Part shown: piece after piece, positions 2,818 to 41,421 of the stretch
Position numbering within the stretch: the first letter of the stretch is position 1
Layout of the letters: each line of letters begins with the position of its first letter
DNA from: Escherichia phage CMSTMSU
Sequence record: MH494197.1
Direction: 5' to 3' (one strand)
Length of the DNA: 64,000 nt
Position numbers and translations under genes: made by a program
Notes under the pieces: generated by a model
The model's database searches: none
What the model saw: the letters and a program-made list of their open reading frames with translations, nothing else
Told to the model about the DNA's origin: nothing

Positions 2818-4169
2818 TTAGAGTACTTTTATGAACTGCATAAGATGGACGGAATGCACCAGAACCAGTTGAACGAGAATACTGTTTAGTACTGTTCCCG
2901 GAAGCAATTCTACGCCGTTAATAAAAGAACCAACTGCTGAACCAAATGAAGGACGAACTATGCCATTTCTGAAATCAGTTGAAATGTTCGCACGTACATT
3001 AATCATGCTATATATTGATTGTGCAGTAAATTTAGCTTTCTGCATAAGTAATGGTTCTGCTAAGTTTGGACATGCAGTACAGAATACTTCACCTGTATTC
3101 AAATAATAATATGAACTGTAAATGTTTCTTGCACCGCTATGGTCATATAACGGATCGTTGTTGAGAACATTACCAGTAGCAACCAATGCCGAACCTGTGT
3201 TTGTAACAACAAATGGTGCAGCAAATGTACCAATATCGTTCCCATTATCCAAGTTACATTGTTTAGTACTCATGTTAAAATTGAAACTATAACTATGCTG
3301 TGGTCGGGTATTGTAGTTTGCCATAGTGAACCATGCGTCACCATTCATTCTGAATCGGAAGTTCTGCGTTCCGGCTCCTGAGCAACATATAAATCGATAG
3401 ATGTCATATAAATCCCCATACCAGCCAAATTTTGTGGTACATAGACATAGGGCTTATCAGCAATATTAGTTGAGTTAACATGGTCAGTAATGATCATATT
3501 ATTCTGAGCAGTATATGTAGTATTGTAAAAGTTTTTGTTGTCCACCCCGTGATTCGGGTAGCAGTATAAGTACCGTTTGCAATATTCAACACAACACGAA
3601 CAACAACAATCTGTAGTTTGTTATTTTCATTAAGGACGTTGAATACATAAACTGAACCGTCTTCTGCCATCATAGCATACTCAATCCCACCTTCAGGTGA
3701 AATATCAGCTTGGTTCACAAAAGACCACTATGTTGAGTATCATCCAATGTACCATTCGTTACTGATATAAACAACCCATTAGTATTGGTAGATGTGTCAT
3801 TGTAACGACCTAACAGTATTTTTGAATCGGTATTGTATAAACCAATAGCAACACGGTTTGCCCCAAAATAGCCGGCTTATACTGACGGCTTGTATTAACA
3901 GTACGGCTCATATCGGTAACGGATAATGCGTTCGCTAGGTAAGAATAAAATAAACCTTCAACACTACCGTTTGTACCACTACGTAATAGTACTAATGTGC
4001 CATCGTTTTCTAAAAGTATTTTGTTTCTACGTTGGGATTGGTTTTCTGATGCACCATTAAAATCACCAGATACCCCAGCAGGTAGATAGTTATGTGTACC
4101 ATAATGCGAGATTGGAAGTAAACTAATTACATCAAGTAATTCTTCTTTGGAATATGTATCAATTTCCAT
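2818..4169 (-). CDS. putative tail fibre/adhesin-like protein (frameshift-fragmented)
   Basis: fragments 3810-4169, 3494-3718, 3345-3545, 2818-3348; N-terminal LLPISHYG and DGTLVLLRSGTNGSVEG paralogous to 222-1456. Confidence 0.3.
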
Positions 4170-4322
4170 ATTACCATTAGCATCAAATACTTGATCATTG
4201 ATACCCTGTACTGTTCTTTTCCTTTAACTGTCACATTATGAGTGACGTCTAAGCCACCATATATTTTCTTTGACATACATATCCCTTGTAATTTAGATAT
4301 TAGTTACTGTATTTATGAATGT

Positions 4323-4346
4323 AATAAAAAGCACCCATTGGGTGCT
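4323..4346 (-). terminator. rho-independent terminator-like hairpin downstream of nrdG
   Basis: plus-strand AGCACCC-att-GGGTGCT stem-loop preceded by A-run (U-tract on minus strand) directly after nrdG stop. Confidence 0.5.
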
Positions 4347-4351
4347 TGTGT

Positions 4352-4820
4352 TTAAAAGTCTTTATTTTTATATAAAATTCGTTGGTTATTTGAACCACGA
4401 AATGGTAATGTTAAATTCTTTTCTTCTGAAACAAATTTACCATCAACTAATACATCTAAGTACTGAAGAATGTCTTTAGCATGATTATTCATAATCTCTT
4501 CTAAAGTATATCCACTCCAGCACCAAATAGTTTTATTGGGATAAGTTTCTTTTACAATCTTACATAGTTCTAAAATTGTTTCTATGTTCTTTTTCATTAG
4601 AGGATCTCCACCAAGGAGGGATAATCCACTAACGTAAGGCTTACTGAGTTCAGCTAAAATTATATCAATTGTATCAGTACTGAACTCTTGTCCACTTCTA
4701 TAATCCCATGCTTCTTCGTTGAAGCATCCGGCACACCCATGACTGCACCCACTAACAAAAGGGAGCATCTTACTCCCTCCCATTAATAAGGTCGTCTTTA
4801 ATTATCGTCTGGTAATTCAT
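4352..4820 (-). CDS. nrdG: anaerobic ribonucleotide reductase activating protein (radical SAM)
   Basis: CSHGCAGC radical-SAM cysteine cluster, GGDPL, IWCWSGY, DGKF, RGSNNQR motifs matching T4 NrdG; N-terminus MNYQ... recovered upstream of a 1-nt frameshift near 4785. Confidence 0.85.
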
Positions 4821-14678: not shown

Positions 14679-14833
14679 TTTAAACTCCTATAGATAGCTG
14701 ATTAGTAAGTTTTCTTTTTGTACAAGATACTCTAATTCTTGTTTCGCAGTTCCGATGAAGTTCTGTGTCATAAGATTATTATATCCTGCTTCTCGATTTT
14801 GTCCCTTCGAATAACGAGAGATGTGACATAAAT

Positions 14834-15238
14834 TTACACCAGCCACCTCTGCACTAGCATGTTTGCCATATGCATAATTATCACGAAGTTTTTAAGTTCA
14901 GCATAAGTCATTTCATAACTATAGCTATGTGAGTGACCCTCTGGAAACAATTCAAGTGATTTTAATGGAGACAGGCGACTTTTGTCAATGATATAGTTCA
15001 TTTCTTCTTGAACTTCACGCTGTAACGCATCTTCTAATGACTTATCAGTACTTTCAACTGTTCCACCACATGCACCCAACAATCCATCCCAACGCACTTG
15101 TAGGAGTACTAAGTTAACCACTGGGATATCATTTAGTTCATAACCAGCGTATGGGGTACATTCTTTTGCATAAAAGAAACAGAATACAAAATTTGCACGT
15201 TTCCCCATTTGCCCCAGTGGTACTTCCGCTTTACTCAT
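14834..15238 (-). CDS. possible Nudix-like hydrolase
   Basis: GGTVESTDKSLEDALQREVQEE resembles a Nudix box but spacing is non-canonical. Confidence 0.3.
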   Translation of the reverse strand: MSKAEVPLGQMGKRANFVFCFFYAKECTPYAGYELNDIPVVNLVLLQVRWDGLLGACGGTVESTDKSLEDALQREVQEEMNYIIDKSRLSPLKSLELFPEGHSHSYSYEMTYAELKNFVIIMHMANMLVQRWLV

Positions 15239-15307
15239 CGCATTCGTTCCTTAATTATAGTTTCAACCTGTGGAATTGCTTTCGTCGCAGGTTTGATGAC
15301 CTTCTCA

Positions 15308-15709
15308 TTAAAAGAAAATCATTATCATTTTTCGGATGTTAACATTTACACTATAGCATGGAAGTGCACCAGCTAGTCTGGACCATACCAGTACTGTATC
15401 ACTACTTCCAATAACTACAACTGTATCATTTTCTGTGAGACTTTTCAACACTTCATTTCGTTCTTCATAAATGGGGAGACGTACCCCATCAACGTAGCGA
15501 TGATACTCACCAATCATCACTACATTTGGTTTTGCAAAAACATCAGCTTTAGGAATATATGGTTCATAACCACAATTAATGACATTGTAATCATCAGTAT
15601 TAATAGAAAAGTTCTCAATTACTTCACATAAATTGCCGTGTAGTTTGAGTTCGGTTCCACCAATTCTAGTATATAGATCATCCATATTAGAAGTCATGTG
15701 TAAAAACAA
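15308..15709 (-). CDS. hypothetical protein
   Basis: 133 aa ORF. Confidence 0.3.
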   Translation of the reverse strand: MFLHMTSNMDDLYTRIGGTELKLHGNLCEVIENFSINTDDYNVINCGYEPYIPKADVFAKPNVVMIGEYHRYVDGVRLPIYEERNEVLKSLTENDTVVVIGSSDTVLVWSRLAGALPCYSVNVNIRKMIMIFF

Positions 15710-15900
15710 TCACCATACAAATCTTCTAATGATTTAATAAAGTAATGCATTTCATTAGGATGACATTCACCTAATTTTACACGCAATGTATTATAAAATG
15801 AATGAACTACATGATACTTAGAACTAAGTCGTGCAATGTTACAAACATCATTAATTTTGAAATTGTCCCACAACCCATCATCAAAGCGGAATGGTTCCAT
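15694..15900 (-). CDS. hypothetical protein
   Basis: 68 aa ORF, may extend upstream by frameshift. Confidence 0.25.
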   Translation of the reverse strand: MEPFRFDDGLWDNFKINDVCNIARLSSKYHVVHSFYNTLRVKLGECHPNEMHYFIKSLEDLYGDCFYT

Positions 15901-16214
15901 CCCGCTCTCAACTGAAAGACCTGCCCTGAAATTATAAGTAATCTTTTGTTCCCAGCATTTTGTATAAATTTATCTGATATCACATTTACTCCTTATATAA
16001 AAAGTATCAAGTTTAATACTAAAAATACAATGATAGCAATATGATAGACATACATCCACTTATTGTGTCCATGTTTATTACCATTCCTGAATTCTCGGTA
16101 TAAACATTTAGTGTGATTGTATAACACCACACAAATAAACACAACTATGAAACAAAAATCCACTCGTAAATTATGTATGCCATCAGATACACTCTCTCTT
16201 TATAATTATTATTC

Positions 16215-39401: not shown

Positions 39402-39707
39402 TTAGATTCGAATCATCAGACATGTAAGTTCGCCGAAGTCAATTACTTCGTCATGTGTTAACTTATCACTACGCTCTAGAACATTGATGATGAATGGTGT
39501 TTGACTATATAATTCAGCCAGAAACGCAACTTCATCAGATGTATAAGAATATCCCATAGGAACAACTTGTGCAGTCCAGTTTCCTAAAGTTTTGTTTGCA
39601 ATGATTGCAACCACCGTATTACCTTTGAATTCAACATGGATTGAACGGAAACCCGAATCCTCATTCTGATCCCAAAGTACTGGGTTAGTTTTAAACAGTA
39701 CTGACAT
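39402..39707 (-). CDS. hypothetical protein
   Basis: 101 aa ORF; ATG 2 nt after the stop of the upstream nucleotidyltransferase gene. Confidence 0.35.
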   Translation of the reverse strand: MSVLFKTNPVLWDQNEDSGFRSIHVEFKGNTVVAIIANKTLGNWTAQVVPMGYSYTSDEVAFLAELYSQTPFIINVLERSDKLTHDEVIDFGELTCLMIRI

Positions 39708-39709
39708 AG

Positions 39710-40238
39710 TTATTTCCTCATGTATTTTATTACATCTTCAAATAGTTTAGTTTTCAGTGCATCATCATTACGTAGAAAAGTACTGAAGCTATTAAAATCT
39801 TCATTCTTGGCAAACTCACGCATCTGTGTGGAACTGTAGCGACTTACATTTCGGTCAATTCCAGCTTGAACTGCCTTGATTGAACAAAAATTATATAACT
39901 TCCCATTGTACGTGTCAAGCGTTTTTGGAATGGTTCAAGTCTGTCTGAACCACATATGAAAAGAACATCTAAGTACTTTCCATCCAGTTCTCTCATTATA
40001 TCAAACAGATTATCTTCTGTATAGATATTTTCTTGTACAGATGGGTAAAATCCTTCTGTATAGTACATTTTCAGTTCAGGAGGTAATGGGTTTTGATGGC
40101 ATCAGTACTGGTACTAAGGAATATTTTCAAATCAGCATTGTACTGTTCTTGTAGTGCTTGAGCTTTTTCAAACACTAAACCATGACCTCGATGTACAGGG
40201 TTAATTCTTCCGAATGTCACTACGCATGTTTCTTTCAT
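39710..40238 (-). CDS. NadM-type nicotinamide-nucleotide adenylyltransferase-like protein (frameshift-fragmented)
   Basis: manual translation MKETCVVTFGRINPVHRGHGL (GRxxPxHxGH signature) and C-terminal SRYSSTQMR (ISxTxxR-like); includes ORF 39844-40068. Confidence 0.55.
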
Positions 40239-40311
40239 ATGTTCTTCATCACCTGACCAATAGATTTAAGATGGTTGATTTTAGCTGGAGTCAAATACTT
40301 ATCCAGTACTA

Positions 40312-40760
40312 TTAAACAACTAGGGAATGGAGCACTGTCAGTCTTTTATCTGGTTCTTCAGGGATACCGAACTTTAAGCGACCTTTTATAAAACAAATAC
40401 AATCACAAACTTTCGCAGCATAATCCTGAAAGGCTATAGTATCAGTTCTTGATGGTACGAGAATCAGTACTGTAGCACCTTTGTTATATGCATCAACTGC
40501 CTTAGATAACCACGTTTTCAAATCACTGTACGGTGGGTTGAGCCACACGATATTGTTTCCCAGTCCTGTTCAAGTGAATTGTCTTCTGGTGTAAAGAACT
40601 TATCACACAATGCAGTTTCTTTGACACACGCTGCATCTAGTGTAAATTCCCAGAGTTCATCCAAATCTTCAAAGAAATCCTTTGGAGTAGTCCAGTTATC
40701 TTTTCCAGTACTGAAATGTACTGATTGTTTTTCTTCGAAGCATCCTTCTTCGACATACAT
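40312..40760 (-). CDS. Dam-like DNA N6-adenine methyltransferase (frameshift-fragmented)
   Basis: WTTPKDFFEDL, FTLDAAC, CDKFFT and NPPY (motif IV) arranged as in small phage Dam MTases; ORFs 40518-40760 and 40312-40548. Confidence 0.65.
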
Positions 40761-40772
40761 AATTTCCTTTGA

Positions 40773-41174
40773 TTATAGACAGTTAAGTACTATGTCATCA
40801 AAAGTACTACTGTCAATGTTGTATTCATATAAAAATTTAAAATGTGATCCATAACGCATCATCAGATTAAACTCTTCTTCAGTATTAAATTTGTAATCAT
40901 GAAGAGTTTCAAGGGTACATGTTAAACCTAAAAACTCAATAATTTCTGATGTTACATCATTTCCTGAATTGAAGTATTTAACCCAAACACATTTTCCTTG
41001 TGGGTTGAATTTTCTATATTCTCCTTCTAGTTCTCCATTGACGATATGTGCTTTCGCACTGATTAGATTATTACTATAACGCTCTTCGTAGTAGTTCCCA
41101 TAACGAGCTTTAAGAATTGTAGGCTTCTTGGTTGGGAATAACTTAATGGAAGTTAATTCAAAACCGCACTGCAA
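40773..41174 (-). CDS. hypothetical protein
   Basis: 133 aa ORF. Confidence 0.35.
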   Translation of the reverse strand: MQCGFELTSIKLFPTKKPTILKARYGNYYEERYSNNLISAKAHIVNGELEGEYRKFNPQGKCVWVKYFNSGNDVTSEIIEFLGLTCTLETLHDYKFNTEEEFNLMMRYGSHFKFLYEYNIDSSTFDDIVLNCL

Positions 41175-41421
41175 CTCTTTGATGTACGAAATACATCCTT
41201 TTCTTTAATCACAACAAAACCAGTAAAATTCTCGGTCTTGTTTCTGATTTTCTGAATCAACAAATTCTAGTGTTTTATAAGTGACGCTTTTAGATTTTTA
41301 ATAAATGACATCATTATTCCTATGGAAACATCAATGACTGTACATGGCGTTGACTTCATCAACACCAGTCGAATTATACACGCTTCGCATGTCTAATTCA
41401 ACGAAAGTACTATGATTTGTT

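Follow-up and report, generated by a model that had tools for sequence, protein, structure and literature searches.

A nucleotidyltransferase gene overlapping a Dam-family methylase gene in Escherichia phage CMSTMSU belongs to a virus-specific family and not to NadM

Does an Escherichia coli jumbo phage encode a step of nicotinamide adenine dinucleotide (NAD+) synthesis right beside a DNA methylase? The question is raised by two adjacent genes of Escherichia phage CMSTMSU, located in a stretch of 64,000 nucleotides of the sequence record MH494197.1, named here the window. A preliminary description of the window read them, at 39,710–40,760, as a NadM-type nicotinamide mononucleotide (NMN) adenylyltransferase and a small Dam-like adenine methyltransferase, and connected the former with the countering of NAD+-depleting defence systems. 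The two genes are indeed present at this place, on the minus strand and with the motifs that had been reported (Table 1), but the NAD+ reading is not upheld. We consider them, with a probability of about 0.8, to be two ordinary co-oriented and overlapping genes of the Asteriusvirus type, coding for an orphan Dam-family methylase and for a nucleotidyltransferase of a viral family (CT hereafter) that is not NadM, and fragmented only by assembly errors.

The window, as given, breaks each gene into three open reading frame (ORF) pieces: 40238–40071, 40068–39844 and 39823–39710 for CT, and 40756–40637, 40760–40518 and 40548–40312 for the methylase. When compared with the phages EC.P1 and WPEC5, the methylase lacks one base after each of positions 40343, 40558 and 40727, all of them in homopolymers, and the lesions of CT are listed in Table 1. 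The records of relatives contain the same genes as a "cytidyltransferase" of 534 bp and a "DNA methyltransferase, Dam superfamily" of 525 bp, on the same strand and with a 4-base overlap. In a fetched relative locus the intact coding sequences occupy 3313–3846 (CT, whose homologue is covered at 100%) and 3843–4367 (methylase). At least 13 independent assemblies encode intact CT and methylase proteins, with 94–99% identity, and both proteins are intact in nature.

These relatives are E. coli jumbo phages of the Asteriusvirus type, with genomes of 350–380 kb. Over the 1.8 kb around the gene pair the DNA identity to the window is 99.2% for EC.P1, itself a phage of this type, 97–99% for Ecwhy_1, fEgEco12, WPEC3, WPEC5 and others (98.3% for WPEC5, whose genome of 381 kb is complete), and about 82% for PBECO4, 121Q, slurp01 and their relatives. 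When 7.8 kb of the window was aligned with EC.P1 and WPEC5, 71–72 bases were missing from the window and 4–7 were extra, the missing bases being located nearly exclusively in A/T runs of at least five, in C/G runs of 3–4 or in CCAGG/CCTGG. The whole window displays about 359 deletions and 24 insertions relative to its relatives, and among 260 deletions private to it, 169 fall in homopolymers of at least four bases and 37 at CCWGG. This motif does not occur in the window at all, against 25 sites in the same stretch of EC.P1 and 31 in that of WPEC5, and each of the 22 sites that both relatives conserve is corrupted. The window carries 82 ORFs of at least 100 residues, compared with about 140 annotated genes in the relatives. 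Such a signature is that of an unpolished long-read-type assembly of Dcm-methylated DNA and not that of gene decay. Since homopolymer and CCWGG errors run through the entire window, most of its short or broken ORFs are artefacts; the six breaks in the gene pair are likewise assembly errors, because they follow this window-wide pattern and the relatives are intact.

Taken at face value, the six lesions that break the frames within about 1 kb could be genuine, the two genes being either decaying pseudogenes or dependent on programmed frameshifting. We rejected this explanation, to which we give next to no chance: lesions of the same type, concentrated in homopolymers and with deletions far outnumbering insertions, occur throughout the window, every CCWGG site is hit, and the intact proteins come from many independent assemblies. 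Apparent frameshifts, short ORFs and missing CCWGG sites in this window should be treated as artefacts until the assembly is polished. The annotated pairs of PBECO4, 121Q, WPEC5 and vB_Ec-M-J (Asteriusvirus), as well as CBB_72/CBB_73 of Pectobacterium phage CBB, have the same genes, order and overlap as the window pair, with 82–99% identity in DNA, 83–100% identity in protein within Asteriusvirus and 34–40% to CBB and GAP32. Nothing biological distinguishes them from the window copy, which is disrupted by assembly errors only. More than 30 genomes of related phages already have the pair annotated, and it holds nothing new in itself.

For the family searches the corrected, intact proteins were used (177 residues for CT and 174 for the methylase). 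CT matches PHROG 3041 over residues 2–176 with an E value of 4.1e-54 and PHROG 395 with an E value of 1.1e-24, both named "cytidyltransferase" and both aligned along its entire length. An exhaustive profile search for its family retrieved 3418 representatives of clusters formed at 50% identity, 2246 of them at E ≤1e-10. Most cyanomyoviruses have kept the family: 565 records of the phage genome collection contain it, 460 of which are Synechococcus, Prochlorococcus or "Cyanophage" myoviruses, with pelagiphage HTVC008M and jumbo phages of Pseudomonas, Vibrio, Erwinia and Xanthomonas among the rest. Almost all of these records use a generic name that is often misspelt, "cytitidyltransferase". The family consensus reads GRFNPPTxGH ... 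SxSQDxKKNPL ... GSDR ... KYNGxxYNF ... SAGxR ... SASKMR, and the alignment columns H19, N50, R100, N112, S136 and R141 are invariant or near-invariant. CT keeps its HxGH motif after frameshift correction, and the first His of this motif (H16 in CT) is replaced by Thr in most family members, as in phosphopantetheine adenylyltransferase (PPAT). Many representatives are 300–1200 residues long, with the CT domain at the N terminus. When 70 long members were searched against Pfam, DUF5824 was found in 14 and a Zeta-toxin/AAA_33 kinase-like domain in five, together with single cases of inteins, ParB and others, and none of the 70 carries a Nudix, NadV or ribosylnicotinamide kinase domain.

An AlphaFold (AF2) model of CT, built from 16 homologues, reached a predicted local distance difference test (pLDDT) score of 88.8. 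Among predicted viral structures, the top Foldseek matches are all "cytitidyltransferases" of cyanophages and uncultured phages, with template modelling (TM) scores of 0.85–0.90; the models from S-PM2, P-TIM68, S-RIM2 and P-HM2 superimpose with TMq 0.85–0.90 and a root mean square deviation of 2.0–2.5 Å, and no nicotinamide mononucleotide adenylyltransferase (NMNAT) appears among the top 50 viral structural neighbours. Among the structures of the Protein Data Bank (PDB), PPAT and nicotinate or nicotinamide mononucleotide adenylyltransferases (NaMNAT/NMNAT) are interleaved, at TM about 0.6 and 13–20% identity. CT is thus equidistant from PPAT and NMNAT structures and not closer to the latter. 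A profile of 42 family sequences gave a similar picture against PDB sequences, with PPAT at 1.3e-4, NadD at 2e-4 and NMNAT at 7.8e-4, the last of these for the N-terminal stretch only, and a single-sequence search of the PDB returned no match for CT and a chance match only for the methylase. By its fold and catalytic residues, CT is a small, Rossmann-like nucleotidyltransferase of the HIGH type and a member of a distinct virus-specific family.

The cyanophage members (S-PM2, P-SSM4 and S-SZBM1_140, of PHROG 3041/395) belong to the same family as CT by both profile and fold and share with it the motifs GRxNPxT/HxGH, KNPL, GSDR, YNG and SxSxMR. They are usually longer (360–1000 residues), with additional N- and C-terminal regions, whereas the jumbo-phage CT is the bare domain of 177 residues, and they reside in a replication module, beside DUF6267 or lysine-rich proteins. 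Phage S-SZBM1 is among the tblastn matches to CT; the function of its homologue S-SZBM1_140 "remains unclear", and the protein was detected in purified virions (PMC9146016). A literature search under the name "cytitidyltransferase" found nothing, the genome papers of fEgEco12 and Sharanji make no mention of NAD or of the CT gene, and no defence system of PADLOC matches CT.

Is CT, nevertheless, an NMN adenylyltransferase? The part of the preliminary description that concerns fold and signature stands, since the cytidylyltransferase fold and the HxGH motif of CT are real; the assignment to NadM does not, as no NMNAT threshold is reached. The H/TxGH signature is found superfamily-wide and is not diagnostic of NadM. 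On NMNAT/NadD models CT scores 16–19 bits overall, in the HxGH stretch only, against cut-offs of 112–150 bits; for instance, it obtains 18.6 bits on the NCBIfam model TIGR00482 (NadD/NMNAT, cut-off 112.45), limited to residues 8–29. Its scores on the Pfam families CTP_transf_like (16.9 bits, cut-off 21) and FAD_syn (18.4 bits, cut-off 27) are also below threshold. In NCBIfam, the archaeal NMNAT model TIGR01527 and the NadM-Nudix models (NF0037xx) do not match CT, and the CoaD models do not match it even at E values up to 1. The bona fide NadM-Nudix of phage CBB (CBB_113), used as a positive control, reaches 287 bits with the NadM-Nudix models and 52.8 bits with TIGR01527, and CBB_73, the CBB orthologue of CT, scores 16–18 bits on the same model library. 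Compared with NadM-type NMNATs (MJ0541 of M. jannaschii and the NadM-Nudix proteins of Francisella, KVP40 and CBB_113), CT is 14–16% identical and has neither a Nudix domain nor a NadV partner. CT groups instead with the viral "cytitidyltransferase" family of PHROG 3041/395. The preliminary description had itself named grouping with another cytidylyltransferase family as a refutation, and the NadM reading is refuted on this ground. CT is not the NadM-type NMNAT by which phages salvage NAD+, and its family should not inherit the label "NMNAT".

The distribution of genuine NAD genes in related phages agrees with this. Along the syntenic region of CBB, the genes follow each other in the order Dam (CBB_72), the cytitidyltransferase (CBB_73), RNA ligase, polynucleotide kinase, DNA ligase, dCMP deaminase, a bifunctional NadM-Nudix (CBB_113), NadV (CBB_115) and a Sir2-like protein (CBB_120), a gene content that has also been reported (PMC5259590). 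Salmonella phage Munch has its Dam–CT pair at 42 kb, and genes for a NadM-type adenylyltransferase and NadV follow at 65.7 and 67.4 kb, respectively. The NAD+-salvage phages CBB and Munch therefore use a different, genuine NadM, encoded apart from the CT gene, which they keep. As the preliminary description had observed, the window contains no NadV, and its suggestion to look for NadV or phosphoribosyl pyrophosphate (PRPP) synthetase elsewhere in the genome, followed in the complete WPEC5 genome, yielded no annotated NadV, NMNAT or PRPP synthetase. Indeed, tblastn with the NadV and NadM-Nudix of CBB against WPEC5 and the window gave nothing better than an E value of 2.4, and control searches with Sir2, CT and Dam queries each recovered the respective orthologue.

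In the window, at about 14790–16060 on the minus strand, a Nudt16-like Nudix hydrolase (PF22327, E 1.4e-18) directly adjoins a Sir2-family protein (PF02146, E 1.3e-19). These two form a NAD-consuming pair without the NAD-making pair. In CBB, the Sir2 homologue is a few genes away from NadM-Nudix and NadV, both of which are lacking in Asteriusvirus phages.

A role of CT in rebuilding NAD+ against NAD+-depleting defences, with another part of the genome or the host supplying NadV, is therefore unlikely, despite the real fold and signature: it finds no above-threshold match to an NMNAT model, no NAD-gene context and a separate true NadM-Nudix in the relatives that perform salvage. PPAT matches CT equally well in structures and family profile, CBB and Munch own a bona fide NadM and NadV besides CT, and WPEC5 has none of the partners over its 381 kb. 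The family members are mostly from cyanophages, no conserved NAD-gene neighbour emerged from a scan of the neighbour families of 75 non-jumbo metagenomic loci, and the fusions of the family carry DUF5824 or a Zeta-toxin-like kinase, never Nudix. The published NAD+ reconstitution pathway NARP2 requires Nampt, and 94% of the Nampt-bearing phages carry an Nmnat of the KVP40 type (bioRxiv 10.1101/2024.02.11.579819). From the logic of the pathway, an NMNAT by itself would not be able to turn the nicotinamide and ADP-ribose left by the defence systems back into NAD+. Still less probably, CT is a PPAT-like enzyme by which the phage raises coenzyme A synthesis in the infected cell. CoaD is of similar size (about 160–177 residues), provides the best full-length structural and profile match, contains similar TxGH and KKNPL-like segments and shows remote profile similarity, with an E value of about 1e-4 for PPATs of the PDB. 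Against it stand the low identity of 13–20%, the TM score of about 0.6, the failure of the CoaD models noted above and the absence of any other gene of the coenzyme A pathway from the neighbourhood and from the WPEC5 annotation.

What would the viral-family CT then do? Most likely it would pass a nucleotidyl group, probably the AMP of ATP, to a phosphorylated acceptor and release pyrophosphate in the process. ATP is suggested as the donor by the nearest solved structures, which are adenylyltransferases (PPAT, NMNAT and NaMNAT) and not cytidylyltransferases. As to the acceptor, NMN or nicotinate mononucleotide (NaMN) appears unlikely and 4'-phosphopantetheine more so, and by far the greater part of the probability goes to something not yet described. 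There is a small chance that CT exemplifies, in minimal form, a large virus-specific adenylyltransferase family whose product may be a new nucleotide-linked metabolite or cofactor, or may belong to a non-canonical NAD+ route; if so, the member from an E. coli phage would make an old unknown testable in a tractable host. In any case, the family is a widespread viral enzyme without a known substrate, biochemically untouched, and the jumbo phages of E. coli are a convenient system in which to assay it. The gene pair as such matters little, its annotation being known and the attractive counter-defence role not upheld.

The methylase is, judging by its sequence, a clear Dam-family (PF05869) enzyme with its catalytic motif, in line with the small Dam-family methyltransferase with DAAC and NPPY of the preliminary description. 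Both motifs are present, and the protein scores 112.5 bits on the Pfam Dam model (cut-off 28.1, E 2.3e-32) over residues 17–161 of 174. It also matches PHROG 111 (E 9e-57) and the orphan-methyltransferase model of PADLOC (E 4.5e-36). LDAAC is the conserved N-terminal motif of the family (LDxxC/A), which had been taken as the binding site of S-adenosylmethionine. The phage enzymes of PF05869/TIGR01712 (phage T1 type) share with it NPPY, small size, a match over nearly the whole model length and orphan status, and the records of relatives annotate no restriction partner beside it. From family membership and NPPY, it would methylate adenine in the phage DNA, with S-adenosylmethionine as the methyl donor. 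GATC is the classical target of the Dam family, as established for its founding members. We also considered a non-specific methylase, based on a supposed membership of Hia5, Hin1523 and Nme1821 in PF05869, and dropped this candidate, as these are FxGxG/DPPY enzymes related to the Dam proteins of E. coli and T4 (PMC3299994).

Several points weigh against our overall reading. The putative preference of CT for ATP over CTP is read from the ranking of its structural neighbours only. The genome-wide absence of NadV and NadM was established in the close relative WPEC5, not in the source genome itself. With 92.6 bits, the methylase narrowly misses the equivalog cut-off of TIGR01712 (phage N-6-adenine-methyltransferase, 97.05), being 4.5 bits short, so that its sequence places it in this family but does not certify it as functionally equivalent. 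Finally, GATC would be its default target by family background only.

A crude proxy for methylation was provided by the positions where the window assembly disagrees with both relatives. Among the GATC sites conserved in both, 6 of 75 are altered at A, for a background of about 0.5% per base, and 9 of the 11 changed GATC sites of the window are altered at A (to G, T or C); the changed sites are located at about 11800–33200, plus 54264 and 60872. This suggests N6-methyladenine at GATC in the sequenced DNA, and the host Dam alone would give the same signal. By the same proxy, AGTACT, the candidate target named in the preliminary description, shows no GATC-like signal (1 of 174 conserved sites changed), and no second adenine motif emerged among the isolated substitutions private to the window. 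In 33 kb of EC.P1, GATC is under-represented 2.2-fold (54 sites against 118 expected).

Is the adjacency of the two genes itself of functional meaning? In a sample of 80 fetched viral loci carrying the CT family, Dam lies directly upstream of CT in five, all of them Rak2-like (a 121Q-like phage, a 345.8-kb relative, GAP32, CBB and Serratia phage BF), and in none of the 75 others. The five-gene block is still preserved across the Rak2-like loci, the CT proteins of which are 34–58% identical. In the other 75 loci, the order is DNA polymerase (gp43), UvsX/RecA, DnaB-like helicase, MazG, DUF6267 or an unknown protein, and CT, followed downstream by lysine-rich proteins, primase and ribonucleotide reductase; this arrangement corresponds to the replication module of marine myoviruses of the T4-like type. 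No NAD genes were found near CT in either the Rak2-like or the marine-myovirus context. Because the pair is confined to the five Rak2-like loci, the adjacency of Dam and CT is a conserved synteny of the Rak2-like jumbo-phage clade and not a general functional coupling. The two enzymes might still act together in DNA modification, CT activating a group that is placed on the DNA alongside adenine methylation; the 4-base overlap and the Dam-then-CT order, kept across Rak2-like phages down to 34–40% protein identity, would fit such a joint pathway. We regard it as highly improbable, given that the pairing is missing from all the other loci, that the whole block is syntenic, so that descent alone explains the order, and that the assembly agrees with the relatives except at homopolymers, CCWGG and some GATC adenines, with no sign of bulk non-canonical bases.

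Table 1 Features of the Dam–CT locus and its neighbours (window positions; lesions are relative to intact relatives).
Feature	Position	Strand	Remarks
CT gene, HIGH-signature nucleotidyltransferase of the viral "cytitidyltransferase" family	39710..40238	-	177 aa in relatives; three ORFs here
Dam-family (PF05869) N6-adenine DNA methyltransferase gene	40235..40756	-	174 aa in relatives; broken here
ATGA overlap	40235..40238	-	Stop TGA of the methylase shares bases with start ATG of CT; read from sequence
FGRINPVHRGH, H/TxGH nucleotide-binding signature of CT	40182..40214	-	Translation
SSTQMR, second superfamily signature of CT (ISxTxxR-like)	39818..39835	-	Translation; S136 and R141 invariant in family alignment
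NPPY, catalytic motif IV of the methylase	40528..40539	-	Translation
DAAC of FTLDAAC, conserved N-terminal motif of the methylase	40626..40637	-	Translation; within the Pfam Dam match (residues 17–161)
CT lesion, 3 bases of CCAGG lost after 39771	39769..39774		Conserved LPGND becomes LRND; LPG invariant in alignment
CT lesion, 1 base lost after 39921 (T6 to T5)	39919..39924		Frameshift
CT lesion, 1 base lost after 40090 (T5 to T4)	40088..40093		Frameshift parting ...DAIK from NPLPPELK
Downstream 101-aa gene of unknown function	39402..39707	-	Syntenic block of Rak2-like jumbo phages (cluster 25)
Upstream gene without known function (about 180 residues in relatives)	40773..41320 (upper boundary approximate)	-	Cluster 23 of the same block; also broken

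Some further features of these genomes were observed. In 33 of the 80 viral loci, many of them contigs of marine myoviruses, CT is directly preceded by a DUF6267 protein of about 400 residues (Pfam E 5.8e-132). This protein has a TKWDG stretch similar to the KxDG motif found in ligases and capping nucleotidyltransferases, and it makes with CT a recurrent pair of two unknowns.

The palindrome AGTACT occurs 214 times in the window, for 18.6 expected, and in the same number in the relatives, for example at 39676, 39697, 39779, 39972, 40104, 40305, 40466, 40707, 40786 and 40803 of the window. The whole WPEC5 genome contains 1122 copies, densest in its first and last 20 kb. The sites lie in non-coding DNA as well as in each of the three codon frames, are almost perfectly conserved, and their flanks favour CAGTACTG. 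We found no explanation for this enrichment and no link with the Dam-family methylase. Other palindromic hexamers are wholly absent from the 381 kb of WPEC5: CCATGG (0 for 39 expected), CTCGAG, AGGCCT and CGGCCG (0 each), which suggests that restriction sites are strongly avoided even though the phages encode several methyltransferases. WPEC5 has a second annotated "DNA methyltransferase" at 100.6 kb, and a HaeIII-like methylase has been reported for phage Sharanji. Outside the window, at 26.7–45 kb of WPEC5, about 15 tandem paralogues annotated as RCC1/ATS1-like "chromosome condensation regulator" are encoded on the strand opposite to that of their surroundings.

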